Sequence record: SRR22947725_3987
Reading direction: 5' to 3' (one strand)
DNA length: 51,443 nt
Part shown: piece after piece, positions 4,260 to 51,443 of the stretch
How the letters are laid out: every line of letters begins with the position of its first letter
How positions within the stretch are numbered: the first letter of the stretch is position 1
Notes under the pieces: model-generated
The model's database searches: none
What the model saw: only the letters and a program-made list of their open reading frames with translations
What the model was told of the DNA's origin: nothing
Program-made: the position numbers and the translations under genes

Positions 4260-4342
4260 AGGTCATTTGTAAAATAATCCGAAAATAAGAAAAAGTTTGT
4301 CATAAGCCTCTTCTTCGAGGAGAGGCTTTGATCATAAAATTT

Positions 4343-7003
4343 ATGCCCGTTCGTATATACGACATCGCCAGAAGACTTGGTTTACCAAATAAAGAAGTCA
4401 TTGCCCACGCCAAGAAACTGGGGATTGCCAACGCCAAGGTCCCCTCTAGTTCCATTGACAAAATCACCGCCGAGTACCTGATTAAGGAACTGGGCGGAGG
4501 TAGCAATGGGGCTGAGTCACCGACACCAGACCTTTCTGATGCAAAGCCTGAGGCCGATAATGAGCAGGCAAAAGAGGACAAGGAAAAAGTTGGAAAAGCA
4601 GAACCAGATATAAGAGAGACTGCGGTCCCTGCGGTAGAGAAACAAGCCCCCAGTGAGGAACCGGCAATCAAGGTCATCCATGCTCCGGAGGAGGAAAAAG
4701 AAGAGGTCATAGAGGAACCCTTGAGCGAGGAGCAAAAAGAATCCGGCGACGAGGGCATTGAGCCTGAACCCGAGCAACCCGCTCTGGAAGACTCAACCGA
4801 AACTGCAACAGAAATTAGTGAATCAAGTGAGGAAGATGACACCACAGAAACCTCCTCTCCTGAAAGCGAGCCTGAAAAAGCAATTGAAGTAACTGAACAA
4901 CAGAATACTGAGGCAGAAGCCACCCCAGAGACCAAGGATGAGACGAAACCGGGCTTGGGTGCGAAGGTTGGTTTCATCAAGCTCCCTACGAGATCCGGTC
5001 CATCCAAACAGACTCGACAGGCAGATCGCAAAAAAGAACGGGAACAGAAACGCAAGGCAAAACAGAAAGAGCGTGAAACAACAGGCTCTCAGCAGCAGGG
5101 CAATGCACGCGGCCATGGCGCTGGAAGCTCTCAGGCAGGCGGTAACATCCCATCTCAATCAACCGCAAATAAACCCAAACCTAAGTTCGTACAGAAATAC
5201 AAGGTTCCGGACGAAGGCGAAGTGGTCACTCTCAAGCCACCAATCATCATTCGAGACTTGGCCATTCAAATTAAACGCAAGCCTTTTCAATTGATTGCGG
5301 ATTTGATGGAATTAAATGTTTTTGCAACAGTGAATCAAGCAATTGATGAGCCAGTTGCCAAACAGGTTTGCGCCAAACATGGATTCCGTTTCGAAGTTGA
5401 AAAACGGGAAAAAGGAGCAGGTGTCACAAAGGTCGAAGAAAAAGTCAAACTAGACCACAGTGACAAGGACGAGGATCTCATTAACAGGCCACCAGTGGTG
5501 ACCATCATGGGACATGTTGACCATGGCAAAACGACTCTGCTGGACGTGATTCGCAAGTCTGATGTCACTTCAGGAGAAGCCGGAGGTATCACCCAGCACA
5601 TAGGAGCCTACACGATCCATTTCCCCCACCCTGAACGTCCTGAGGAAATCCAGCAAATCACCTTTCTTGATACCCCTGGTCATGCCGCTTTCAGTGCAAT
5701 GCGTGCACGCGGGGCGAATGTCACCGACATTGTGATCCTGGTGGTTGCCGCAGATGACGGCGTCATGCCTCAAACTCTTGAAGCATTGAATCATGCTAAG
5801 GCTGCTAAGGTCCCCATCATCGTTGCTGTTAATAAGTGCGACCACCCTTCAGCCAATCCTATGAAAGCACGTCAGCAACTTCAGGATCGAGGATTAATGT
5901 GTGAGGAATGGGGAGGTGAAACTATTTTTGCGGACGTTTCTGCTATTACCAAACAAGGTGTTGATTCGCTCCTCGAAATGGTCCTACTGCAGGCAGAAGT
6001 CCTTGAACTCAAGGCAAACCCTAATCGAACGGCAACTGGAAATATCATTGAATCGGGTATGGATCAAGGTGGTCCAACTGCAACAGTGCTGGTGCGCAAA
6101 GGCACGCTCAATGTAGGCGACTCAATGATTTGCGGTCCATTCTGGGGGCGCGTCAAGGCCCTTATCAATGAGGAAGGCAACCGTTTGAAAGTTGCCGATC
6201 CATCCGTGGCAGTCAAGGTCCTGGGATTGAATGGTGTGCCAGAGGCGGGCCTCGAATTCAATGTGGTCAAATCCGAGAAACAGGCACGTAAACTAGCCGA
6301 AGAACGAGCTGAGAACGCAAGAGTCAAATCAGCAGACCGACGCAAAGCAGTCACTTTGGAGAATCTTTTCAACACCCTCAAGGAGGGTTCCAGCAAAACA
6401 CTCAAAGTCGTTATTAAAGCTGATACCCAAGGTTCCTGCGAGGCCATTGTGGATGCTCTTAATGAGATTAATTCTGATAAAGTAGATCTGGATGTCATAC
6501 ACAATGGTGTGGGATCTGTCACAGATTCAGACATCATGCTGGCGTCTGCTTCACAAGCTGTTGTAATTGGTTTTCATACAAAACTGGACACTGGCGTTAC
6601 CGATACGGCCAAGCGCGAAGGAGTCCAGATCAAACTGTATAGCATCATTTACGAGTTGATTGATGAAATGCGGGAGGCCATGGCTGGACTGCTTGATCCA
6701 ATCACGAAGGAAGAAATCACAGGCAAAGCCGAAGTCCGGAAAGTTTTCGATCTCTCCAAAGGGGGTGCGGTGGCAGGTTGCTACGTGGTCGATGGAAAAC
6801 TGGTTCGTGGAAGAACACGAGTTTACCGCCAGGACAAATTATTGTTTGAGGGCCTCATGCAGTCTCTTAGAAGGTTTCAGGATGAGGTCTCTGAGTTGAG
6901 AACGGGCATGGAATGTGGTCTTCGTATTGACGGCTTCACCGGATACAAGGAAGGCGATATCATTGAGACGCATATCCTCGAAAAAGTGGCGCAAAAGCTC
7001 TAG
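4343..7003 (+). CDS. infB: Translation initiation factor IF-2
   Basis: [42 protein letters not shown]; long acidic N-terminal linker. ATG at 4343 preferred over TTG at 4328. Confidence 0.98.
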
Positions 7004-7028: not shown

Positions 7029-7388
7029 ATGCAGTCTCTGAGACATCAGCGCATTCGGAAGTTATTGAAGAGGGAGGCAGGAGGTCTGCTAAGACAGCAT
7101 CTCTCTATAGAGACCTATGGATTGGTCTCCGTACATGAAGTGTTTGTTTCGGGTGATTTGAAACACGCGAAAATTCTTCTGGGACATGTCGGCTCCGTCA
7201 CCCAGCAAAAAGCAGCCTCGATCTACCTCTCAACCCACCGAGGTGAAATACAGAAGGAAATGTCTTGCCGAGTGGTCATGAAGTATTCACCTCAGGTCAA
7301 ATTTTCCTTCGATGATTCCATTGAAAAAGGGAACAACGTGCTGAGTATTATTGATGAATTGGAAGATTCCGACGATTCGCCATCATGA
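7029..7388 (+). CDS. rbfA: Ribosome-binding factor A
   Basis: Directly after infB; VSGDLKHAKI and KYSPQVKFSFDDSIEKG motifs. Confidence 0.92.
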   Translation: MQSLRHQRIRKLLKREAGGLLRQHLSIETYGLVSVHEVFVSGDLKHAKILLGHVGSVTQQKAASIYLSTHRGEIQKEMSCRVVMKYSPQVKFSFDDSIEKGNNVLSIIDELEDSDDSPS

Positions 7389-8377
7389 AGTCAGCGCCAA
7401 AATCTGCCATCAGAATCCTGGAAGAGATAAAGAGTCACCAAACGTTCTGCGTCGTGGGACATATTCGCCCGGATGGTGACTGCATTGGATCTCAATTAGC
7501 TTTGACGTTGGCCCTGAAATCCTTGGGTGCAGATGTTGTTTGCTGGAATCAGGATCCATTACCGCCAAAACTTCTTTTCATGGATCCACAAGGGTTATTG
7601 CAACAGCCACAAAAAGGCTACAAGTTTGATTGTGTCATCGCCGTAGACGCGGCCTCGTATGAGAGAATTGGCAGCGTGGTTGATTCTATTACTGAACGAA
7701 AGCTACTGATCAATATTGATCATCACCCAAGCAACACAAGATACGGTGATTTGAATTGGATTGCGTCCAATGCTTCGTCCAGCGGCGAGATGATCTTTCA
7801 ATTGATGAAGGCCGCAAGATGGCCTGTTACCCCGGAAATTGCGGATGGTCTTTTCACTGCAATTTCTACCGACACAGGATCATTTCAATATCCCTCGACC
7901 AGCCCAGATACCTTTCAGACTGCAGGAGAACTCGTCAAACGAGGAGCAAGTATTGCCCGAATTTGTGATGAGGTTTATCAGTCCTACTCGCTGTCTCGAG
8001 TCCGTCTCCTGAGAAGAGTTTACAACCAGTTCAAGTTAACGGCCGAGAACCAGATTGCATATCTCTGGCTCAAGAAATCTGATTACTCCAAGACAGGAGC
8101 AACCAGAGAAGATACGGAGGGATTGATCGATCACATTCGAGCCATAGAACCTGTAGTGGTAGCGTGCCTCTTTGAAGAGGTAGAACCCGGTGAAACGCGA
8201 ATAAGCCTTAGGTCGAAACATCCTGATGTCAATGTGAACGAAATTGCTAAGCTATTTGGCGGTGGAGGCCACAAAGCGGCGTCAGGAGCGCGTATTGAAG
8301 GCAGTCAACTTTCTGTTCAGCGAAAGGTCATCTCGGCCATTCGAAAAGCTCTGAAGACCCTCTCTCCAGAAGAATAA
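7385..8377 (+). CDS. nrnA: DHH/DHHA1 phosphoesterase (NrnA-like oligoribonuclease / pAp phosphatase)
   Basis: HIRPDGDCIGS, IDHH, TDTGSF, SLRS, GGGGHKAASG. Confidence 0.9.
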   Translation: MKSAPKSAIRILEEIKSHQTFCVVGHIRPDGDCIGSQLALTLALKSLGADVVCWNQDPLPPKLLFMDPQGLLQQPQKGYKFDCVIAVDAASYERIGSVVDSITERKLLINIDHHPSNTRYGDLNWIASNASSSGEMIFQLMKAARWPVTPEIADGLFTAISTDTGSFQYPSTSPDTFQTAGELVKRGASIARICDEVYQSYSLSRVRLLRRVYNQFKLTAENQIAYLWLKKSDYSKTGATREDTEGLIDHIRAIEPVVVACLFEEVEPGETRISLRSKHPDVNVNEIAKLFGGGGHKAASGARIEGSQLSVQRKVISAIRKALKTLSPEE

Positions 8378-41699: not shown

Positions 41700-43697
41700 A
41701 TGAGACAATCGAGAAGGAAAGACTGGATTGAAAGGTTGCTACTCATCCTTCTCTCACCCCTCACTCAAGCGGCAACCTTTGATTGCACGATCGAGCCGGG
41801 ATCTGATGATGCAATAGGAAAGGCGCATTACCGTATCTGGATACCAGAGGAAACGCCTGAACTGCGTGGTATTATTTTTCGCCAGCATGGTTGTGGTCAG
41901 GGCGCGAGGAAACTGGGACTGGAGCATGCCGACGATATCCAGTGGCAGACATTGGCTCAAAAACATGGTTTCGCACTCATGGGCTCGCAAATCTGGGCGC
42001 CCGAAGAAGATTGTTCGACCTGGACCATGCCAGAGGATGGATCTGCAAATGCCTTCCTGAGTGCGATCAAATTACTCGCAAGAGCCTCGGGGCATGCAGA
42101 ATTGGATCAGGTTCCCTGGTGCTTGTGGGGTCACTCCGGGGGAGCGATCTGGACAGTGAACATGGCTTACCTGTTTCCTGAGCGTATCATCGCAGCCTTT
42201 CCTCGCTCTGGAGGTCTTTCGCCTGCCGGAACCACCTACACGCGCAGCACCCCACAAAAGCCCGGTTCAAACAAGGCAACACTGAAAGTCCCCATCCTTT
42301 TTTGCTATGGCAAAGAGGAGTATCAATCCGGCAACCGTTTCTATGATTTAATCGCCGGGGTACACGAAGTATTCGAGTTTGGCCGCAAGCACCATGCACC
42401 TTGGGCTCTCGCAGTGCACCCCGACTCTGAACATGAGAACAGTCAGAGCCGGCAACTGGCCATTCGCTACTTCGATAAGATCATCCCTGCGCGACTACCT
42501 GACCCAGCCCATCCCAAGAACAAGATTCAGGTCCTGAAAACATTGCCCACCGGAAAACATTGGATCGGATTACATGAATCCCTGGAAACTTTCGAAGCAT
42601 CCAATCTGCAATCCAATCTGCATAAATCCAGCTATCTACTGAACAAAACCCTTGCCACCGATTGGGAATCTTTTTGTCAAAATGGACACATCCCCGATAC
42701 CTCTCCTCCTACGCCTCCACACAACTTGAGAGTCGAACAGGAGCAATATCGAACCAAGTTGCAATGGAATGCTTATGCAGACATGGAGTCAGGCATCCAA
42801 TCTTTCAGAATCTACCGCAAGGGAAAACTCATCGGCGAAATAGCTGGGGTATTGAATCGACAATGGAACCCAACAGGGGCCTATCAGGCTTGGAATTACA
42901 GTGACCAGCCACTCCATGGCCGAGAACTTCTACCTATGGTTTTCACGGATGGCAACGCAGCCAATGCACAACCCGAGGATTACCATGTATCAACGGTCAA
43001 CAAAGAGGGATTGGAATCCAAGCGCACTCAGGGCATCAGCATGAAGACATGGAGCGTAAGAAATAAATCCGTGTGGACAAATCTCTCGGATACCGATTTT
43101 TTAACTCACTGGGAAGGACCTGATGGTCATAAGCCGAGAGGCTGGAAATGGGAAAACGAAATCCTGAGCATGTCTCCACACAAAGACAAAGAGTCACAAA
43201 CCAGCCTGTATTCCAAAGAAATCTATGGAGATTTTGAGTTTCAGTTTCAGTTCAGAATCGGAAATGGAGGAAACAGTGGTGTCAAATATCGTATGCAGGA
43301 TTTCGATGAACAATTCCTTGGTCCCGAATACCAGATACTCGACGACCAGCAACACTACCCTGGCTACAACCCTGCCGAATCGACAGAAGCCCGTTACATT
43401 ACAGGCACACTTTACGTATTGGACATGGGAGATTGGAACCTGGATCCTCGTCATCCACCAGGGACATGGAATGCCGGAAGAATCATTTCAAATGGCAACC
43501 GGATTGAGCATTGGATCAACGGGGTAAAGATCGTAGATACACGCACCCATACCGAGGAATTCAAACGGGCTATTCAACAAAGCAAGTTCAAGAAATGGGA
43601 TCATTACGCCCAAAACACCAAAGGCCGCATCATGCTGCAGGACCACGGAACCAAAGTCGAATTCAGAGGATTAAAAATCAAACGCCTACAAAAATAG
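41700..43697 (+). CDS. Secreted alpha/beta-hydrolase + FN3-like + DUF1080 (3-keto-disaccharide hydrolase-like) fusion protein
   Basis: WGHSGG nucleophile elbow; PPTPPHNL..LQW..FRIYR FN3-like segment; YGDFEFQFQF, GNSGVKY, EYQILDD, IEHWING, IMLQDHG..VEFRGLKI of DUF1080. ATG at 41700 avoids overlap with the upstream gene. Confidence 0.8.
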   Translation: MRQSRRKDWIERLLLILLSPLTQAATFDCTIEPGSDDAIGKAHYRIWIPEETPELRGIIFRQHGCGQGARKLGLEHADDIQWQTLAQKHGFALMGSQIWAPEEDCSTWTMPEDGSANAFLSAIKLLARASGHAELDQVPWCLWGHSGGAIWTVNMAYLFPERIIAAFPRSGGLSPAGTTYTRSTPQKPGSNKATLKVPILFCYGKEEYQSGNRFYDLIAGVHEVFEFGRKHHAPWALAVHPDSEHENSQSRQLAIRYFDKIIPARLPDPAHPKNKIQVLKTLPTGKHWIGLHESLETFEASNLQSNLHKSSYLLNKTLATDWESFCQNGHIPDTSPPTPPHNLRVEQEQYRTKLQWNAYADMESGIQSFRIYRKGKLIGEIAGVLNRQWNPTGAYQAWNYSDQPLHGRELLPMVFTDGNAANAQPEDYHVSTVNKEGLESKRTQGISMKTWSVRNKSVWTNLSDTDFLTHWEGPDGHKPRGWKWENEILSMSPHKDKESQTSLYSKEIYGDFEFQFQFRIGNGGNSGVKYRMQDFDEQFLGPEYQILDDQQHYPGYNPAESTEARYITGTLYVLDMGDWNLDPRHPPGTWNAGRIISNGNRIEHWINGVKIVDTRTHTEEFKRAIQQSKFKKWDHYAQNTKGRIMLQDHGTKVEFRGLKIKRLQK

Positions 43698-43705
43698 AAA
43701 AGGAC

Positions 43706-43733
43706 TTGATTCAAGTAAAGTATCCCATACAAT
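43706..43733 (+). promoter_or_regulatory. Putative sigma70 promoter of tRNA-Thr
   Basis: TTGATT (43706-43711), 16 nt spacer, TACAAT (43728-43733). Confidence 0.5.
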
Positions 43734-43790
43734 CCGCTCTGTTGTCCATCGTGGCAAGGCACGTTTAGCCCTACGAAAGACCAACAAAAG

Positions 43791-43865
43791 GCCAGCTTAG
43801 CTCAGCGGTAGAGCAACGGTTTTGTAAACCGTCGGTCGTCGGTTCGATTCCGACAGCTGGCTCCA
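43791..43865 (+). tRNA. tRNA-Thr (anticodon TGT)
   Basis: GCCAGCT/AGCTGGC acceptor stem, D-arm GCTCAGCGGTAGAGC, anticodon arm ACGGT-TTTGTAA-ACCGT, T-arm GTCGGTTCGATTCCGAC, encoded CCA. Confidence 0.98.
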
Positions 43866-44077
43866 TAAAAACTCCACTATCAGCCGGCAAAGCGGCAATC
43901 CTTTGATGTGTCGTTCAGTAAATAGCAGAAGATAATAGAAGGCAAACGACACAAAACGTGTCAATTTTATGTCAATTGGAATGTAGAGGGATGTGGGGCT
44001 TACCTCTAGTTAATGGAGGGTCGATCTGTGATAGCATCATAAAATTGATGTCTCAATCCTCCATCACCACAAGGCGT

Positions 44078-44509
44078 CTAGCTGGCGTTATTCAAATATC
44101 GAGTAACTGACTCGACCCGCACGAGGGAGGCGTTGGCGCCGAGCTTCTGCTCGATAGGGGCCATGACTCGTTCACCTCGCCTGGAGAGAAGCTCAAGGCA
44201 TCGCTCCCTCTTAAGAATCTCATCGATCTTGCGGGGGACAGGCATCCGTGCAAAACGATCGAGCGTCCTCATTACATCCTCACTCATTATTCGCCTGTAC
44301 TCGGCGATAAGAGCAGGGTCATCGATCTCGTCAAACTCAGCTATAGTCTCTTCTTCTTTATGAGTCCCCCACTCATAGCGCCTTTTCCACTCGCGGACGG
44401 TCCCTGGACGCACTTCCAGAGCTCTCCCCACATCTTCAGCATTCATTCCTGAGGCAAGGAGGGCTTTGGCGCGCTTACGAAGCTCAATGTCTAGTGCAGC
44501 TATTGGCAT
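44078..44509 (-). CDS. HTH protein resembling a terminase small subunit / terminase N-terminal HTH
   Basis: AKALLASGMNAEDVGRALEVRPGTVREWKRRYEW HTH followed by helical segments; lies downstream of the replication module. Confidence 0.55.
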   Translation of the reverse strand: MPIAALDIELRKRAKALLASGMNAEDVGRALEVRPGTVREWKRRYEWGTHKEEETIAEFDEIDDPALIAEYRRIMSEDVMRTLDRFARMPVPRKIDEILKRERCLELLSRRGERVMAPIEQKLGANASLVRVESVTRYLNNAS

Positions 44510-44599
44510 AATTTTATATTAGCTTATTTATAGGTAATTGTGAAGAAGGGAAAACGGGGCCAAACACTAATTCGAGGGGACATACCATGGCGCTCTAAT

Positions 44600-44850
44600 C
44601 TATGCCCACCCTAACAATGGCCTCTAATAGAGCGCCGATACGCGGCAAGGGTGGACATAGCAGTAAAAAACCAATATTCCCCTTCTCCTCCCCAAAAGGT
44701 TTTTATTCTCTGAACACATACATACATAAATAAAATAGATTAAAAATATTGTATTATATCCCTATGTCCACCCTTGGAGGAGGAAAGCCGCTCCAGCCGC
44801 GGCTCCCGTCGGGGTGGACATAGAAGTGGGCATAGATTATGTCCACCCTT
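44600..44850. repeat. Iteron-like repeat array flanking an AT-rich core (putative replication origin)
   Basis: CTATGYCCACCC copies: forward 44600-44611, reverse 44647-44660, forward 44762-44775, reverse 44812-44823, reverse partial 44826-44835, forward 44838-44850; AT-rich stretch about 44716-44760. Confidence 0.85.
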
Positions 44851-44873
44851 TTCCAACTTTTAGCAGAGTGTTG

Positions 44874-47198
44874 TCAAACATCTTGAGCACCTTCCCGGAT
44901 TGCGAATACCCATTTACTGTAGCCGTTGACCGTTTTCTTCTCTACGGCGAATCCTCTTTCGGGGTGTTTGTCCGCTGACGTTTTGACGTGCCTTAAAATA
45001 TGCCCGAGGCTGGAGGGGGTCTTAGCCAATTTAGGCATCGATTGGTCCTCTGCCCCGTGCAACAACTCCCAGACTTTGTCTAAATCATGAGCATGTTCCC
45101 CTCCAAATAGTGCTTTAGCTATCTCGCCGCCCTCTTGAAGGATCTTGCTTATCCGTTCACTTACTCGTTCGCTAGGTGAGCCCATCTCTGCGGCTTCTAT
45201 GCAAATCGGGTGTTGCCATGTCGCTACACCATATCGCTCCCCTGAACACTCCTCGGGCAATACGTAGTTGTCTATGCAGTGGCAGAAAGCTTGAACTTCG
45301 TTCCGTATTTGCTCCTGAATTTCGGCTCCCACGGGGTCGTTCATCCCCTTCCACATATTCACATGGAAGCACCTGAGGTATATCACTTTGTCCTCGATAC
45401 CTGCTACTGGCGGTATGGCCGCCAGGTCTTCTTGCGTGTCATCATTCGCTGAGGCTACTATTAAACGCTTAGAAGGAAGTGTAGTCTTTTCTTTCCCTTT
45501 GCCCTCACAGCGCGTGTCAGGATTTGCCGCAATCTTTTTATAGTATCCCGCCAAATCTTTTCTCGCCTTATACCTCCCATCGCCTTCCGAATCACTTAGG
45601 ATCGTGATCACGTTTCCGATCTGCTCTGCGTTGAACCGGCTTAAAAGATCTTGGGTTTCGCATAGGCTGTATTTTCTGTCTATGCAGTATGGAAGGATTT
45701 CTGTCTGGAAATGTGTCTTACCACAGCCCTTTGCGCCTATGAGCATGAGCGGCGGGACCGTTCTTTTTTCCTGGTAATTTTTGACCATCTTCCGAGTCGC
45801 CTTTAATAGCCCCATCAGAATATGGAATTGATGCTCCCAGTGGGGTTCGTTTGCGTTTTTCCCTAATAGCCTCTGGATGTATTCAATCGTCTGCGGACAC
45901 TCTCCCTGCTGCCCTTCCTCAAAATATCGCTCTTGTGGGACGAAAAAGTATTTCCCCTGATATTCGTGAAGACCCGCGGGGTAGCCGGCGACCTCTCCGA
46001 TGTAGCTTAGTTTTGGTTTCTTCCCGATCTTTGCGAGAACGTAATCGACTTCTGAGCTGTTCGGGCCATTGACCAGTTCCTTAGAGACATCTAGATCCCA
46101 CACTAGAAATCTTTCAAAGTCGTCTCGAGCCATTTGCATGTATCCTCCAGACTTCGGGTCGCCCTGTAGTAGAATCCCGTTGTCTGGGTCTTCGGGGCTT
46201 CTCGGATAAAGCATCTCCGAACCGATTCGGTGAGTCTTCTTAACAATTTCGTCGAGCTTTCCCTTGTCGAAATCCTTCCTGTGGCTGTTTTCTTCTGCCG
46301 CTTTCTTGATCACCCTCTTGAGTTCCATCATCCCCAGTCCTTGAATCCCCAGTCCTACGATCCTTTCGCTAAATACTTTTTGAAGCCTGGGATCCTCATG
46401 CATTGCCGCCATTGATTGGTAGAGTCTTTTCTCGGGTTTCCCCCCACCTTCTATCACGCTTTTGAGGCTGGCCTCATTGAGCTTATCCAGCAACTTGAAT
46501 TGAAGATTACCTTTGGATTCTTCGGGATCGAGGGGGATGCGCTCGAGTGCGTTCCACTTCTCATTTCCTTCTGCGTCCCAAACTTCAAAGCAATCGTCCG
46601 CCCCCTTCTCTCCATCATAAGGGAGCCTCGGCAGGGTTAATTCTAACGATGAAAATTCTGTTTTAACCATTGCCTTTGCCAGTAGCACAGCTGCATTGGC
46701 GAAGTCCTTGTTGATGGCTGTGTCCGTGTCTCCCAAAAACTCGATTGTCTTTAGTTTCTCAGCATTTTTGAGGACCACAATCAATTCGGGGTGGAGTTTA
46801 TTCGTGTTCTTGGGGGTCAGTGCCCCATAAAACCCCTTTATTCCGACGGCGGGGATCCCCCGTTCCCAGAGGGAGAGGGCTTTGAACTCACCCTCGACGA
46901 TCACCAATGAATCGGCGCTTTCGACTTTCAGTTCGGGCGGGATATATATGTGCGTGGTTGAGCCTTTCCTTTGCGAATACTTCTTATCTCCAGTAGGGGC
47001 ATTCAAACGCAATACTGAGAAAGGTTCTTCAGCGTCCACCACATCCCTTCCTTGGTAGGTTTTATATGGGATCAATATGCCCGTTTCCCTGATTCCCACT
47101 TGGCTCGATGCTTCCGCTGAATCGACTTGTTTGATTCCTGCCGATTTCAAGAAGTCTTCGGAAATCCCGGGCCGTTTTAGTTTGGTTTCTGTGTTCAT
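44874..47198 (-). CDS. Toprim-type (DUF3854-like) primase fused to SF3/D5-like helicase
   Basis: LVIVEGEFKA, FLGDTD and KGADD Toprim acidic motifs; Walker A GAKGCGKT, SRFN, TILSDSE, ASAN in the C-terminal half. Confidence 0.82.
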   Translation of the reverse strand: MNTETKLKRPGISEDFLKSAGIKQVDSAEASSQVGIRETGILIPYKTYQGRDVVDAEEPFSVLRLNAPTGDKKYSQRKGSTTHIYIPPELKVESADSLVIVEGEFKALSLWERGIPAVGIKGFYGALTPKNTNKLHPELIVVLKNAEKLKTIEFLGDTDTAINKDFANAAVLLAKAMVKTEFSSLELTLPRLPYDGEKGADDCFEVWDAEGNEKWNALERIPLDPEESKGNLQFKLLDKLNEASLKSVIEGGGKPEKRLYQSMAAMHEDPRLQKVFSERIVGLGIQGLGMMELKRVIKKAAEENSHRKDFDKGKLDEIVKKTHRIGSEMLYPRSPEDPDNGILLQGDPKSGGYMQMARDDFERFLVWDLDVSKELVNGPNSSEVDYVLAKIGKKPKLSYIGEVAGYPAGLHEYQGKYFFVPQERYFEEGQQGECPQTIEYIQRLLGKNANEPHWEHQFHILMGLLKATRKMVKNYQEKRTVPPLMLIGAKGCGKTHFQTEILPYCIDRKYSLCETQDLLSRFNAEQIGNVITILSDSEGDGRYKARKDLAGYYKKIAANPDTRCEGKGKEKTTLPSKRLIVASANDDTQEDLAAIPPVAGIEDKVIYLRCFHVNMWKGMNDPVGAEIQEQIRNEVQAFCHCIDNYVLPEECSGERYGVATWQHPICIEAAEMGSPSERVSERISKILQEGGEIAKALFGGEHAHDLDKVWELLHGAEDQSMPKLAKTPSSLGHILRHVKTSADKHPERGFAVEKKTVNGYSKWVFAIREGAQDV

Positions 47199-47227
47199 TA
47201 TTTTAGTGATCTACAATTCCTGATTGT

Positions 47228-49069
47228 TTAAATTTTTGTGTATTCCAAGCACAGCTGCCCCTCCGCTCCAAGCGGCAGGTCTTCCGCCCACAAGGGTGGC
47301 GTGGTCATGAGTTTGATTATTTGCTGGAGGGTCGCCTCAGCGTCTTCGCTGGGGGCCTCAGCAACTAATTCATCGTGAACAGTGAAGAGAACCCGGATTC
47401 CTGCCCGCTGCACGGCAAGGAGCCCATGGCAGAAAATATCCCTCGCAAGGGCTTGGCATTCGTTTTCGTAGAGCCTTCCGCCATAGTAGGCCTCTCTCCT
47501 GCCATCTCCGCCTTTGGTCGGCGATGCTGTGCATTGGGGTTTGGCCTTTATTTGTTCTCTCTTGACGTTGTGGTATCGAAGTTCTCTCCCGCTTGGCAAT
47601 GTGTTGACGTAGTCGCGCGTTCCAGGGGCGTGATTGTGTTTGAGCCCGACTTCGAGGTCTCTCCAGCGGGCCGTAATCTTTGGGTTGGTTCTTCTGAACT
47701 CGCGCACAATTTGCTCTGCGCGTTTCAATCCTAATCCCTTGCCCTCAGCCAGCCGTTTGGAGCCCTGCTGAAAACCCAAAGCGAGAACCCTGACTTTGGC
47801 CAGATCCCTTGTGTCCGGGTCTTCTGCCTTCAGATCCCCCCCGTTCCAACCCATAGAAGCTCGAGCGTGAGCTTCGTAAACATCAACGCCTTCCTGAATT
47901 GATTTGAGCATTTTTGTATCACCAACAAGCATAGCGCCCGTCCTGACCTCGATATTGGAAAGGTCGATCACGGCGAGTTTGTGTCCGGCTCTTGGGATTA
48001 TGAGCCCCCTAATATCCACCCCCTCTACCGACTCCTTAGGTAGATTTAACATGTTTAGTCTTCCGGCCCCTGAGAAGCGGCCGGTGATCTCGGAACCGTA
48101 GTACTTAACTTCGAACGGCAGTATGTTTTCAGTCGTCAATCTTTCCTCGATCTTTCGGAGCAGCTTGAGCGTCCTGTCTATCTTTCGATAGTGCTGAAGG
48201 CTTTTTATGAGATCCACACCGCTTGGGTAATTTTCCATCCAAATCTTTAATTCGGGGGCATCCTTCTTCGTTGACGAAGGCGCAGGGATTCCGAGGTCTT
48301 CGCAAGCTCGCTCCAAACCTTTTTTTGAACCCGGCGACATATCGGGGGACCATGGGAGTTGTTCGATAAGATCCCTGCGGGCCTCAACTAAGCTGTCTAT
48401 TCCTAATTCCAAGGCTTGGCGATCGATCCTTACACCGTATTCCCCTTGGTTCATTGCCAGTGTCATTAAATCCATTTCGTGCTGGGGCGTTTTCGGTAAG
48501 AGCTTCTTGTAGATACGGAGGGCGTATTTGGCGTCATCTTTTGCATACTGGACGAATTCTGCCCGTTCGTTCTGAGAAAGGTCCTCTAAGGTCCGACCCT
48601 TCATACGATCCCGCACATCTTTCGACACTTTGCAGTCAAAGAGGGCTGCACAAGCCCCTTTTAGAGAACGTGGCAACTGGTTGTAGGCGCACATACCGGA
48701 CGTATCGATCCAGGCATCTTCGGGAATCTTGGGGCATCCCGGCGTAGCTCTTAGGACGGCTCTATCAAACCCCGCGTTATGCGCTACAATCTTCCTCCCT
48801 TTCAAGATCTCCCATGGGAAAGTCTCCGGAGGTTCGCATATTACGCTTCCATCGGGAGTAGCTGCGGATATGAGAAGCGTTTGAAAATTTGGGTGCTTCG
48901 TATATGCGTGGCTTCCAAGCTCGAAGACGGAGCATTCATCGTCGTAATACGTTTCAGTATCGACCGCAACGACTTGTTTTTCGGTCGGGTCTGTTTTGCG
49001 ATTCTGTTGGTGGTTTTGCATGCGTTGATAAATCAGAGATTTGGCCTTTAGTTTTTCGTTGAAGACCAT
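47228..49069 (-). CDS. Phage-type family A DNA polymerase with 3'-5' exonuclease, no 5'-3' nuclease
   Basis: ExoI VDTETY, ExoII HNAGFDR, ExoIII YAKDD; TGRFS; motif A DLSNIEVR; motif B RDLAKVRVLALGF; YGGRLYENECQALARD; motif C VHDE. Confidence 0.93.
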   Translation of the reverse strand: MVFNEKLKAKSLIYQRMQNHQQNRKTDPTEKQVVAVDTETYYDDECSVFELGSHAYTKHPNFQTLLISAATPDGSVICEPPETFPWEILKGRKIVAHNAGFDRAVLRATPGCPKIPEDAWIDTSGMCAYNQLPRSLKGACAALFDCKVSKDVRDRMKGRTLEDLSQNERAEFVQYAKDDAKYALRIYKKLLPKTPQHEMDLMTLAMNQGEYGVRIDRQALELGIDSLVEARRDLIEQLPWSPDMSPGSKKGLERACEDLGIPAPSSTKKDAPELKIWMENYPSGVDLIKSLQHYRKIDRTLKLLRKIEERLTTENILPFEVKYYGSEITGRFSGAGRLNMLNLPKESVEGVDIRGLIIPRAGHKLAVIDLSNIEVRTGAMLVGDTKMLKSIQEGVDVYEAHARASMGWNGGDLKAEDPDTRDLAKVRVLALGFQQGSKRLAEGKGLGLKRAEQIVREFRRTNPKITARWRDLEVGLKHNHAPGTRDYVNTLPSGRELRYHNVKREQIKAKPQCTASPTKGGDGRREAYYGGRLYENECQALARDIFCHGLLAVQRAGIRVLFTVHDELVAEAPSEDAEATLQQIIKLMTTPPLWAEDLPLGAEGQLCLEYTKI

Positions 49070-49076
49070 TTATTAT

Positions 49077-49823
49077 TTAAAAGTAGTTGTATGTGAACTT
49101 TTTGCGTTTCATCCAGCGATTCAAGCGCGTATCCGTCTGGTGTTTTCGTAGTCTCTCTTCGGCCTGGGAAAGAGTTTCGAAGTGTTGTGCGGCAAGCCTG
49201 ATATAATCCGCATATACCCGCGGAGGGATGTCATCATTGGTTGCTAGAATCTCGATGTCCGATTCGGGGGCTTGGAACAGGCTACTATGCGGATCGGGGG
49301 TGTCCTCGACTCGATACTTCGATAGAACCGTTGTAGCTTGGAATGCCTGCTGGAAAGCGACTCCCCAACGCTCGGCTAGGCTTAGATGTTCCTGATTGTA
49401 CCAATAGGCTATTGTATCCACCGCGGCATAAGCCTCGGTGGAGAGGCTATCCATGCCCGGGTAGCAGTCTCGATATTCTTTTGCTCGGCGTACCGCAGCA
49501 GAAAGAGCGGGTCGCCCCACCGCCTTAACAGGAGCTAGGAGGAAACGAACATGATATGGTGGGACTGCTTCCACTGGCGGCGGGTCCTTTAAGTCTTTCT
49601 CGACTGCTCGAAGCCATTTGGCAGCTCGGCAACTGCGGTATATGGTCGTCGCCATTCGGCAAGCTTCCTTTTGAGCGCCCGAACCCTCTTTTACGTCACA
49701 GAGCTCTAAGTTCTCATCGAGAGCGTTCTCGCATTCCGCCGCACGAAGAAGAATCTTGACTACTTTGGCTGGTAGGAGTTCCGGTGGAAAATCCGCGGGC
49801 GTCGCATGTTTGATGATGTCCAT
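49077..49823 (-). CDS. Hypothetical protein of the island operon
   Basis: 248-aa ORF packed between the excisionase (4 nt gap) and polA (7 nt gap); no recognised motif. Confidence 0.7.
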   Translation of the reverse strand: MDIIKHATPADFPPELLPAKVVKILLRAAECENALDENLELCDVKEGSGAQKEACRMATTIYRSCRAAKWLRAVEKDLKDPPPVEAVPPYHVRFLLAPVKAVGRPALSAAVRRAKEYRDCYPGMDSLSTEAYAAVDTIAYWYNQEHLSLAERWGVAFQQAFQATTVLSKYRVEDTPDPHSSLFQAPESDIEILATNDDIPPRVYADYIRLAAQHFETLSQAEERLRKHQTDTRLNRWMKRKKFTYNYF

Positions 49824-49827
49824 ACTA

Positions 49828-50046
49828 TTATTGACCTGCGACGTGGATTTTGTGTTTGTTTAGCAGCTCTTTGATTTGTTCAAGATCAAATCTCACACAT
49901 CCTGGTGATAGCCTTATCACCGGAATCTTGTGGGCATTGACCCAAAGGTCTAAAGACCGAATAGATATTCGCAGTTTTTGGGCGACCTCTCGTTTTGTGA
50001 GTAAAGGCTCGCCCAACAGATTAATTTCCTTACCGTTTCTTACCAT
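49828..50046 (-). CDS. Excisionase/AlpA-like HTH DNA-binding protein
   Basis: LLTKREVAQKLRISIRSLDLWVNAHKIPVIRL..GCVRFD, the HTH_17-type pattern; 72 aa. Confidence 0.88.
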   Translation of the reverse strand: MVRNGKEINLLGEPLLTKREVAQKLRISIRSLDLWVNAHKIPVIRLSPGCVRFDLEQIKELLNKHKIHVAGQ

Positions 50047-50086
50047 AGACCATAAGAGAACCGGAAAATCCGCGTATCATCAAAGA

Positions 50087-50136
50087 CCAAGAATAGCCCC
50101 TATTCTTGGCGGGTGTAACTCGTTTACTGAGAGTTA
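50087..50136. promoter_or_regulatory. Two inverted repeats upstream of the island operon (operator candidates)
   Basis: CCAAGAATAG-ccc-CTATTCTTGG (50087-50109) and TAACTC-N9-GAGTTA (50116-50136). Confidence 0.5.
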
Positions 50137-50416
50137 TAGGGGTTTAAAAGTGGTCGAAAAATGCGGCGTCAGGCCTAGAAAGGAGCATGCAAGCCGAAAT
50201 GGAACAATTCGACCCCCTGATGCGGTGAAAACCTAGGTGTAAATAGTTCAATTTTTTACCTTTTTTTAAGATCTGTTGGGCCGAACAGTGGGGATCAGCC
50301 TAGCTAATCTTGAGAAGCCGCGTTTTGGCAGCAGCTAACGCGATTAGGGACAGCGCCATTAGCCCGAATCCGGGTTCTAGGGTAACCTGGGGAAGGAAAT
50401 AGCTATTGAAACCTGT

Positions 50417-51277
50417 TCAATAGTATTCTCGTATGTAGCCGTAAGCACGCTCAAACAAGTCTTGGTCCTTGTGGAGCTTGTATTTTAATAGAGATTTTCT
50501 CAGCGCCTTCTGCACTTCCTTCTGACCTGAACTGGAATCCTGCCAGCCATCAAAGCGAACGAATTTCACGATCTCATCAATATCATTGACGATTCGTGCG
50601 ACGACGGCCGGGGTCTGGTCTGTTTTCAGGTCGAGAAACAATTCAGTATGGGCAGCTTTTGCCCCTTTTTGCTCCTGCTCGGTAAGGGCATCCTTCTCAG
50701 CCTCGACGGTTTCGCGGGCGATCTTGCAGAGTTCTTTGACGAACTCGATGCTCTGGATCAGTCCTTGCTCTGCTTTGTCACGGAGCTTTTCGAGACGTTC
50801 GCTGAGGTCTTTGAACCTTGGGTCGTCGCCACCTTTCTTGAGGCGCTTGGCGAGTTCCTTTTCGAGGCCTTTGACCCTCTTCGGATCACCACTTCCGGCG
50901 ATCTCTTCGATGACTTCGGCGTCGAGAACGTATTCTTTCACCTCATCGACGATGCCTCCGACGTGGATGTTCTTATGGATGAGTTCGGAGGTCTTGGCTC
51001 CGGTGGTATGCCAGAGGAGTTTGCCGATGTTGTCGTTGCTAGGTTTGACGGACTGGTAGACGCCAGTGAGCCAGCGGTGGTCGGCTTGGTAGGCATTGAG
51101 GATGTCAGCGGGACTGAGAGATTCCCAGACCTTGGCGAAGGCGTCGCGCTTCTCGTCGTCGTTGATGCAGTTCTGGGCAGCTTCCAGGCCCTCGAAGCCA
51201 TCGATGGTGCGATCCACTCCGGGGAAGTGGGCGAGGCAGTCGGCCATGGCTTCGGGGAGCTTGGCTTCGAGTTCCTG
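50417..51277 (-). pseudogene. hsdR: C-terminal fragment of a type I restriction enzyme R subunit (HsdR), lacking nuclease and helicase domains
   Basis: GFEGLEAAQ, WESLSP, RWLTGVYQSV, LSERLEKLR, IVNDIDEIV..VRFDGWQ, DLFERAYGYIREYY resemble HsdR C-termini; the sequence upstream is unrelated. Confidence 0.72.
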
Positions 51278-51443
51278 TGTGACAGGCTTATCTTCGATGG
51301 TTGAGGGGATATGCAAGGTCCCTGAAGCCTCCCCGCTGCATCCCGTGATGTGGACCTCTTGATCTTCTCTACCCCTGGACATCCGAAGACAAGCCAAATC
51401 ACTGGTCGAAGCTGGCAAGACCTCAGCTGAGGTCGGTGTGTTG
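51278..51443 (-). pseudogene. N-terminal remnant of a BspA-type leucine-rich-repeat surface protein, in frame with the HsdR fragment
   Basis: ASTSDL...VHITGCSGEASGTLHIPSTIEDKPVT resembles the N-cap that precedes LRR_5 repeats; the frame is open to the window edge. Confidence 0.5.

Follow-up and report, generated by a model that had tools for sequence, protein, structure and literature searches.

The stretch of DNA described here, hereafter the window, comprises 51,443 nt of sequence record SRR22947725_3987 from a marine Verrucomicrobium, and all coordinates without a locus name are those of the whole window. From 43866 to at least about 50400 it probably contains a small integrative mobile element, inserted at the 3' end of a tRNA-Thr gene, and we give the explanation developed below, taken as a whole, a probability of about 0.7. 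The element is about 7 kb in size and has its own proofreading DNA polymerase of family A (PolA), its own primase-helicase and its own putative origin, which is unusual at such a size. As a rule, small integrative islands and phage satellites use the polymerase of the host, and to our knowledge few mobile elements have been described from marine Verrucomicrobia. The proteins of the window were compared with the profile libraries Pfam, PHROGs, NCBIfam and PADLOC, and the runs compared with the window are contigs of bulk metagenomes (Logan contigs). Labels beginning with G denote genomes or records, L loci, P database proteins, X runs and A alignments.

The island is a single string of minus-strand genes reading up to the tRNA, as a reading made from the sequence only (the sequence-only reading) had described it, and all of its genes were recovered as open reading frames (ORFs) and with Pfam and PHROGs. 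Next to the tRNA-Thr(UGU) gene (43791-43865, plus strand; ARAGORN, and Rfam tRNA at 72.7 bits), whose 3' end forms the left junction of the island, lies the terminal island gene, which encodes a 143-aa helix-turn-helix (HTH) protein of the HTH14x family (44078-44509; Pfam, PHROG). It is followed, after an intergenic gap of 364 nt that contains the repeat region with the putative replication origin (44596-44850; motif counts and comparison with L003), by the gene of a 774-aa primase-helicase with a DUF3854 Toprim domain, a DUF5906 superfamily 3 (SF3) helicase domain and a C-terminal alpha/beta domain (44874-47198; Pfam, AlphaFold (AF2) model, Foldseek), by the gene of the 613-aa PolA with its 3'-5' exonuclease domain (47228-49069; Pfam, PHROG, alignments), by a 248-aa orphan ORF without a family, orf248 (49077-49823), and by the gene of a 72-aa Xis/AlpA-like HTH protein (49828-50046; HTH_17, phrog_66). 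Capsid, portal, TerL, tail and lysis genes were not found in 43866-51443 by Pfam, PHROGs and NCBIfam; when PADLOC is included and conjugation genes are considered as well, again no such family was matched, in agreement with the sequence-only reading.

The left boundary is seen by comparison with other genomes and with the runs. The nearest genome available for comparison, G001, has 33% shared words with the window, and its contig C25 matches 43000-43866 at 89%, the match ending at the last tRNA base and being followed by other DNA. The sequence after 43865 likewise differs from that of the window in Logan contigs of three DNA runs (three studies). Because G001 and the run contigs diverge there, the tRNA 3' end is a polymorphic junction, as an integration site would be, and the earlier proposal of a discrete island at this tRNA end held up. 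The tRNA-Thr is the sole tRNA that ARAGORN found in the window, and an Rfam search of 43000-51443 gave the tRNA alone. In G001:C25 (L001), positions 163-237 are a tRNA-Thr(UGU) like that of the window up to the variable loop, while the T arm and the 3' strand of the acceptor differ; three acceptor pairs read as mismatched, and the contig ends 160 nt further on. Another element integrated at the same tRNA in G001 would fit this deviating half. As a mark of the crossover site, the deviating 3' half was dropped as a candidate, the tRNA of the window being well paired and that of G001 not, which makes the difference more informative about G001.

Relatives of known limits indicate what kind of element this may be. 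A scan of species genomes with a primase-helicase profile gave 30 loci, mostly Verrucomicrobiota by record title. The best of them, L003, on a Verrucomicrobia single-cell scaffold, shares its coordinates with G002:C125, so that the two were counted as one locus, and G002 falls in the genus of G001. The order in L003 is tRNA-Tyr, tyrosine integrase, orf286, xis (47% identical to that of the window), PolA (53%), primase-helicase (49%), orf108 and iterons, and the element measures 7.4 kb. The 9.9-kb marine contig L052 aligns with L003 over 7,389 columns at 97.05% identity, and the match begins inside the last 19 nt of the tRNA. Its flanks are a different integrase gene on the left and ankyrin genes on the right; on the right of L003 there are leucine-rich repeat (LRR) and sulfatase-maturase-like genes. 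A 7.4-kb unit that stands in two contexts and is cut at a tRNA-end core has the appearance of a discrete integrative element.

A further 115 nt (L003:10138-10252) are directly continuous in L052; therefore L003 also carries a 2.4-kb insert, and the right end of the L003 element is approximate. The insert (L003:7756-10137) contains ORFs of 204 and 255 aa without a family and interrupts an ORF which runs unbroken in L052 (8371-8595). In L052, positions 1-1075 hold a second, unrelated tyrosine integrase gene, which reads away from the 19-nt tRNA-end core and suggests tandem islands at one attachment (att) site. No PHROG matched the accessory ORFs of L003, and no structural Pfam family was matched in L003 or L052. 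A repeat of the tRNA-Tyr end was not found in L003, either at 12 nt or more or with up to 6 mismatches, and L052 has no terminal overlap.

Complete limits are available in G004, a complete one-contig genome of the same genus, which has a 9.1-kb version of the element without PolA. Here the order is tRNA-Thr(CGU), integrase, orf267, the xis-like orf97, a 777-aa primase-helicase (31% identical), small ORFs and a lectin-like gene whose product is a 680-aa protein with Laminin_G_3. The element lies between perfect 55-bp direct repeats of the 3' part of tRNA-Thr(CGU), at 4327-4381 and 13418-13472 of L140 (G004:C1), and no structural gene was recognised in it. An IS66 transposase gene is situated just outside its attR. 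Moreover, L014 of an Akkermansia sp. has a tRNA-Leu followed by integrase-like, xis-like and primase-helicase matches, again without PolA. The elements in L003 and G004 point to a family of tRNA-targeting islands of 7-9 kb in the genus, which would share a backbone of integrase, ORF, Xis-like protein, primase-helicase and iterons, and this family is part of the explanation to which the probability of about 0.7 applies jointly. Besides this backbone, the branch represented by the window carries a complete proofreading PolA directly upstream of the primase-helicase.

PolA is matched by the Pfam families DNA_pol_A (E 4e-23) and exo1 (3'-5' exonuclease, E 6e-8) and by phrog_17 (E 1e-87), and it could be aligned to the Taq polymerase across motifs A, B and C. 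In an alignment of seven sequences, the exonuclease motifs Exo II (N98/D102) and Exo III (Y175/D179) and the polymerase motifs A (D369/E374), B (R421/K425/L429) and C (D566/E567) are invariant; the Exo I pair D37/E39 is present in six of the seven rows and is displaced in the distant L011 row. The exonuclease domain is present with its DEDDy residues. As the 95%-identical protein P0026 is 592 aa long, PolA probably begins at M22 (49006). Residue 429 of motif B, at a position which we take to be that of Phe762 in the Klenow enzyme, is Leu in the window and in all six aligned relatives, and in the PolAs of the window and L003 a Phe replaces the next conserved residue, a Tyr. Leu at this site is a known variant of the PolAs of virioplankton. 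Against 50,697 GenBank phage records PolA found 1,721 records, all of those listed being below 60% identity and the best rows at about 27-28%, and a scan of IMG/VR with PolA alone gave no close relative. No neighbour of PolA resembling a single-stranded DNA-binding protein (SSB) was recognised with Pfam or PHROGs.

The primase-helicase is matched by DUF3854, a Toprim-like family (E 4e-7), and by DUF5906 (E 7e-7) in Pfam. Across 13 sequences the Toprim residues E102-G-E104 and D157xD159, Walker A (G488...G493-K494), Walker B (D536) and the sensor N585 are invariant. With the AF2 model (predicted local distance difference test, pLDDT, 83.9), Foldseek found RNA-polymerase domains of DnaG for the N-terminal half (Aquifex 2au3, E 1.6e-8) and SF3 helicases for the C-terminal half, namely those of phage NrS-1 (CTR, E 2.6e-11), vaccinia D5, MPXV E5 and PriRep1; in BFVD the matches were Toprim-primase/helicase proteins of uncultured tailed phages. 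Both enzymes are therefore as they had been described, PolA by its complete exonuclease and polymerase motifs and the primase-helicase by its Toprim and SF3 residues and these structural matches. The primase-helicase is rare: 23 proteins reached E <=0.001 among 8000 scored candidates out of 5.8 billion. A scan of genome contigs with this single protein gave no close relative, and tblastn gave no match at E 1e-5 in 50,697 phage or 72,556 plasmid records. In PADLOC there were just weak rows for the two enzymes, namely DRT-associated PolA and DnaG-like ones.

The third part of the replication module is the repeat region. With up to one mismatch, GGTGGACATAG has five matches in the 51-kb window, all of them within 44600-44847 and in both orientations; the expectation is 0.47 for the whole window, and none of 100 shuffles reached five. 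The five copies read as GG(G)TGGACATAG in both orientations, an inverted pair GTGGGCATAGATTA lies among them, and they flank an AT-rich core at about 44690-44760. In L003, GGGTGGACGTAG occurs six times at 7362-7635, just downstream of the homologous primase-helicase gene. The window and L003, whose proteins are about 50% identical, thus share the 12-nt repeat GGGTGGAC(A/G)TAG in the region that follows the helicase gene. This gives good comparative support for what would be a protein-binding iteron array, because the motif is conserved in place although the two primase-helicases are 49% identical. The region is accordingly placed as a putative origin, and the GGGTGGACATAG repeats are the proposed binding target of the primase-helicase.

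The two enzymes travel together in other loci as well, and this bears on their descent. In a survey of 131 loci, 20 had a primase-helicase match reaching residue 600 or beyond; 12 of the 20 had a PolA relative in the same locus, and 6 of the other 8 have less than 1.2 kb of upstream sequence. In L060 and L095 PolA is followed by a truncated primase-helicase. The gap from PolA to primase-helicase is 2-29 nt in the window, L003, L052 and L060; in a more distant group (L053/L061, L033, L057/58, L067), in which PolA is 35-42% and the primase-helicase 27-32% identical to that of the window, about 1.3-1.9 kb of small ORFs lie between the two genes. Genes for an integrase, an SNF2-type helicase (phrog_62 at E 1e-46) and an exonuclease (phrog_69 at E 1e-21) accompany the module in the distant group, as in L067. 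G421, the IMG/VR record of L033, is 47,383 bp long with direct terminal repeats and CheckV completeness of 100%, and encodes TerL (phrog_2, E 1.7e-23) and a virion structural protein. It had been stated that this type of PolA otherwise belongs to full phages with an SNF2 helicase and an exonuclease, and such an arrangement is what L067 and the 47-kb phage G421 have. The temperate tailed-phage module (G421/L033, L053, L067) therefore resembles the island in its homologous PolA and primase-helicase, standing in the same order and on the same strand downstream of an integrase, but these phages of 47-60 kb have in addition the SNF2-type helicase and the exonuclease, small ORFs that fill about 2 kb between the two genes, and a full structural set.

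In a FastTree phylogeny of 57 PolAs, rooted by choice on the distant L011 and with contexts known for few tips, the 12 PolAs of the window/L003 type fall into a single clade (support 0.999); L053 (48-kb contig) is its sister, and the L033/L067 group comes next. Because the small-element PolAs form one clade next to phage-type PolAs, the tree fits a single event in which the replication module of a temperate phage was reduced to a small element. Both enzyme genes would then derive from the replication module of a lineage of temperate tailed phages, of which the element no longer has the SNF2 helicase, the exonuclease or any structural gene. A pairing of the two enzymes exists outside Verrucomicrobia too, since it was found in a Victivallis contig (L011:740-5392), where the order is reversed and the primase-helicase, apparently in two ORFs, precedes a 734-aa PolA (24% identical). 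Distant relatives of both enzymes occurring in phage-type contigs of 47-60 kb, and the end of the window 7.6 kb into the island, could also mean that the island is the early-gene edge of a full-length prophage with its structural genes past the window end. This is very improbable: the closest relatives of known limits measure 7.4-9.1 kb and no structural gene was recognised in them, the island lacks the SNF2 helicase and exonuclease genes of the phage module, and beyond xis there are no phage genes but a restriction-type fragment and an outward-pointing HTH gene of a chromosomal type.

The right end is more complicated. The sequence-only reading had ended the island at 50136, a coordinate which proved arbitrary, foreign-looking DNA running on to the window end. 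Upstream of xis there is a 370-nt intergenic region (50047-50416, from reading of the sequence) with a perfect 10-bp inverted repeat, CCAAGAATAG-CCC-CTATTCTTGG, at 50087-50109, 41 nt upstream of the xis start, which could be an operator or a terminator. It is followed by an ORF of about 321 aa on the minus strand (50417 to about 51382) with a T1RH-like_C-type body, which is open to the window end. Its match to PF11867, the C-terminal domain of type I restriction R subunits, is below the cut-off (E 0.008), and an Atlas lead (0.82) goes to stand-alone T1RH-like_C clusters of 318-337 aa. Residues 21-55 of this ORF (35 aa) share 57% identity with the N-terminal part of a BspA-type LRR ORF, L150:10035-10595, which in G002:C25 is divergent from an HTH14x gene. 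Because its first 35 codons resemble a BspA-type LRR N-terminus, the ORF is, as read from these matches, a cargo gene or a chimera. On the plus strand, the window ends with 81 nt (51363-51443; DNA matches and alignment A3) that make up the opening 27 codons of a second HTH14x gene, TGA standing in place of the ATG of its HTH14x relatives (alignment A3). This piece has DNA matches of 88-89% in G002, G005 and G006 and four copies in G004, and no Rfam family matched it. In contigs of three DNA runs, other upstream sequence stands just before 51363-51388, ending in ATG in X1 and X2. The ORF fragments, the start-less HTH gene and the diverging run contigs make the visible right end, by its appearance, a recombination joint among gene fragments and not an att site.

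Several observations weigh against a complete and mobile element in the window. A homologue of the integrase was absent from the window searches, the window ending inside the region. The tRNA-Thr 3' end has no extra match in the window at up to 3 mismatches that could be a second att site; the G001 version of the tRNA end has no second copy there either, and a 16-nt version, again with up to 3 mismatches, has none. No circular or deletion joint for the window copy is listed among the run contigs. Furthermore, the orientation of the module relative to the tRNA is opposite to that in L003 and G004. Where the relatives have the integrase gene and one ORF upstream of xis, the window has the T1RH-like_C ORF, which is fused to fragments of the LRR gene and of the second HTH gene; because this fragment-fused ORF replaces the integrase region, the window copy may be rearranged and immobile. 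The integrase of the window copy would either lie further on or have been lost in the rearranged right end. Only the first 7.6 kb of the region lie within the window, and the element may therefore include further genes. The lack of structural genes is a result of Pfam and PHROG profiles, several ORFs having no family. The replication role of the module is proposed from its gene content, and PolA may serve repair instead of copying of the element.

From the same observations one could take the window copy for an immobilised remnant, that is, a replication module stranded in a graveyard of tRNA-linked islands after loss of the integrase end. The integrase and attR not found in the window, the mosaic right end with a T1RH-like_C ORF that has 35 LRR codons and abuts a start-less HTH gene, and the different DNA after the same tRNA in G001 would all agree with this. 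We nevertheless regard it as rather unlikely, since the five module ORFs are all open with intact catalytic residues, other contigs carry nearly identical copies (99% and 89% identity for the primase-helicase; 95%, 88% and 87% for PolA), and parts of the island stretch are present in 19 of the 23 listed runs, from nine studies. Among the contigs with such copies are those of P0028 (PolA 88%, 127.5 kb), P0026 (PolA 95%, 20.9 kb), P0027 and P0025 (11.9 kb) and P0002 (primase-helicase 89%, 39 kb). In addition, the integrase may simply lie past the window end. A small integrative element with its own replication module is the preferred reading also for the window copy.

How such an element is copied can be proposed from its genes. 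The integrase and Xis would excise a circle, which would be replicated from the iteron region. The primase-helicase would bind the 12-nt repeats, possibly via its C-terminal alpha/beta domain (model residues 700-767), open the AT-rich core, load as an SF3 hexamer and prime with its Toprim domain. The proofreading PolA of the element would extend the primers, and elongation need not depend on Pol III of the host. Transfer could take place in capsids of a helper phage, in vesicles or by other routes. Dependence on a helper phage, and replication after the host has been shut down, are pure conjecture. It is tempting to go further and to suppose a class of self-synthesising integrative elements based on a family-A polymerase, in which temperate phages would have been reduced to 7-8 kb with integrase, Xis, PolA and Toprim-SF3 protein and an iteron origin; this generalisation is tentative and still doubtful.

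Whether the island is a phage satellite depends largely on the HTH protein at its tRNA end. In the 143-aa protein, Terminase_5 was matched with E 4.9e-5 and 23.6 bits against a cut-off of 20.3, the match spanning residues 10-55, which are the HTH; HTH_23, HTH_Tnp_1 and HTH_28 of Pfam score nearly as well, and the PHROG matches are to families of 'DNA binding protein' and 'terminase small subunit' (E 6e-5 to 8e-4). Its AF2 model is poor (pLDDT 58.6) and consists of the HTH and two long helices, and its profile found no terminase among the solved structures. Full-length paralogues of 147 aa are 43-46% identical (alignment A4) and occur in the genus in G002, G006 and, as four non-identical copies, in G004. 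Several of these genes (family members in L150-L155) point with their own 3' end at that of a tRNA; two of the paralogues adjoin a tRNA-Glu 3' end (L151, L154) in an arrangement as in the window, one (L153) is followed by an integrase fragment, and others stand beside efflux and surface-protein genes, including in G004; the paralogues may mark ends of old islands. The protein can be called an island-end HTH protein, possibly a regulator or terS-like, a terS function not being supported. The label 'terminase-small-like' used in the sequence-only reading is not supported: the match is at the level of the HTH alone, the paralogues occur in ordinary chromosomal contexts, and neither a structure nor a profile matched terS beyond this.

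A strict satellite would be induced by a helper phage, replicate with its own two enzymes and be packaged in helper capsids, the HTH protein acting as small terminase. Its size and tRNA site resemble those of the type of phage-inducible chromosomal islands (PICIs), and the order of xis, replication genes, origin and HTH gene is presumably also like theirs. The weak Terminase_5 and terS PHROG matches, and replication genes from a temperate phage lineage that could act as helper, are further points for it. Marine virions contain satellites that were found integrated in Verrucomicrobia, some satellites having terS and DNA polymerase genes, according to the main text of PMC9618062. As the terS-like signal is confined to the HTH, however, with paralogues of that protein among efflux and surface-protein genes in G004, no terminase found by the profile search of solved structures, no close relative in the IMG/VR scan with PolA alone, and no capsid-remodelling or interference gene recognised, this reading appears doubtful. 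Helper-control genes were likewise not recognised in the island.

The comparison with known satellites gives a similar picture. The island is like PICIs in its size class, tRNA-linked site, Xis/AlpA-type HTH protein, replication gene with iterons and small HTH gene at the far end; a Xis/AlpA-type regulator, a primase or replication initiator and adjacent iterons are present in it, the integrase and att repeats are not found in the window (the integrase is in L003 and G004, the att repeats in G004), and of packaging genes there is just the HTH-level match to Terminase_5 and terS PHROGs. Unlike PICIs, it has its own family-A polymerase, has no recognised packaging or capsid-morphogenesis gene and no integrase in view, and its hosts are Verrucomicrobia. 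Satellite P4 is also a small integrative element at a tRNA gene. Its alpha protein, we take it, combines primase, SF3 helicase and binding of the origin at short repeats near its own gene, as the multidomain protein of the island may do. P4 presumably relies on the host polymerase and carries genes for capsid size and helper control, whereas the island has a complete PolA and none such recognised. The P4 alpha protein and the polymerase-helicase pair of phage T7 are what we would regard as functional analogues of the module.

The VEIMEs (Eppley et al., PMC9618062) are virion-packaged marine satellites without capsid genes that form concatemers inside the particles, and according to the main text about 20% occurred in integrated form in genomes of bacterioplankton as well, Verrucomicrobia included. 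Some members of VEIME module 6, which is linked to Pelagibacter and Alphaproteobacteria, are reported with terS and DNA polymerase genes, the main text leaving the type of polymerase unspecified; members of the Verrucomicrobia-linked module 3 have mostly serine recombinases (PMC9618062). The island resembles them as a small marine integrative element without capsid genes; in that main text VEIMEs are defined by encapsidation, and the island is likened to them by its gene content.

Tycheposons offer another comparison, being by their description marine, tRNA-targeting and 7-10 kb or more in length, with a tyrosine integrase at one end (as in L003 and G004), a replication module and optional cargo (bioRxiv 10.1101/2020.12.28.424599). 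A tRNA site with a replication module is what the island has. On this basis the island could be a phage-independent replicon of the tycheposon or integrative-plasmid type, which would be excised and amplified under stress and spread by vesicles, transformation or other means; the polymerase would then serve just to free it from the host replisome. The tRNA site, the replication module opposite the expected integrase end and a cargo-like gene (the T1RH-like_C ORF; the lectin-like gene in G004) speak for it, as do the definition of tycheposons in the text of that preprint, by which many of them carry polymerases, primases and helicases, and DUF3854 Rep proteins, which drive plasmid replication as the text of PMC10079941 describes. 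In the preprint text, what defines tycheposons is an integrase specific to their lineage together with a common gene pool, but the island is likened to them by description and organisation and not by integrase lineage; moreover, no extrachromosomal form was seen among the run contigs (no joints listed), and the primase-helicase has no match at E 1e-5 in the plasmid records searched. We consider this possibility a tentative one. The legend in the preprint glosses 'pri' as primase, primase/polymerase or primase/helicase, and a full PolA is not clearly described in the text there (bioRxiv 10.1101/2020.12.28.424599).

The reading as a small integrative element with its own replication enzymes can also be set beside elements that are known for their polymerases. 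Pipolins and casposons, as their descriptions have it, are prokaryotic integrative elements encoding their own DNA polymerase, and are in this respect alike; they carry family-B polymerases, which in pipolins are primer-independent, whereas the island enzyme belongs to family A (DNA_pol_A, alignment to Taq) and stands with a separate Toprim primase-SF3 helicase. In SCCmec, CCPol-MP primase occurs with the helicase Cch, and a truncated A-family polymerase acts as primase with an SSB-like partner (Rice 2022, bioRxiv 10.1101/2022.12.02.518924). A chromosomal mobile element with an A-family polymerase fold beside replication genes is the common feature, and the island differs in keeping the exonuclease and full polymerase domains, with priming assigned to the Toprim domain; the CCPol-type arrangement of no exonuclease and an SSB-like partner was not found in it. 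The CyRepA1 and CyRepA2 proteins, Reps of cyanobacterial plasmids, have an N-terminal DUF3854 and a C-terminal helicase and were shown experimentally to give autonomous replication (PMC10079941), which makes them a third functional analogue of the module; they are borne on plasmids in Cyanobacteria, and the text of that paper mentions no polymerase gene beside them. In full-text searches of the literature, taken without the supplementary gene lists of the VEIME and tycheposon papers, no small integrative element with a complete PolA and a DUF3854-SF3 protein was found, and none in Verrucomicrobia. The novelty is lower than the sequence-only reading had supposed, since small integrative elements from the sea have already been mentioned in print as carriers of polymerase genes; the pairing of a complete PolA with DUF3854-SF3 was not found in those searches.

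If the preferred reading is true, a PolA/primase-helicase/origin module of phages can persist as a stand-alone integrative replicon of 7-8 kb. If the self-synthesising version is true as well, such an element could be copied without the host replisome, for example during host shut-down by a helper phage, and would be among the smallest natural replicons with their own proofreading polymerase, primase and helicase. The two enzymes and the putative origin of about 250 bp with its 12-nt repeat would make a compact testable system for reconstitution in vitro or for a vector backbone in Verrucomicrobia. The same backbone with PolA (window, L003) and without it (G004) is a natural comparison of what the polymerase contributes.

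Among the smaller genes, the Xis-like protein scores 28.2 bits with HTH_17 of Pfam against a cut-off of 27 and matches phrog_66, 'excisionase and transcriptional regulator', with E 7e-8; it is 47% identical to the gene at the same position in L003, L052 and L060. For orf248 no family was found in the four profile libraries and no Atlas match; it has a single homologue among 5.8 billion proteins (P0025, 86%), and none of 401 genomes of the class carries one. No pairwise similarity was seen between orf248 or orf341 and the ORFs at the same positions in L003 and G004, and NCBIfam added nothing new for the family-less ORFs. A scan for promoters and terminators gave counts not above those in shuffles. 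In the runs, word depth of the contigs is lower in the island than in the host flank, which was not used as evidence on copy number. The stretches 49468-49799 in X2 and 49136-51127 in X6 are uncovered by contigs at least 90% alike, and this was not used as evidence of absence. Finally, contigs of the RNA run X17, which do not in themselves show transcription, cover parts of the helicase gene and 50109-50430.

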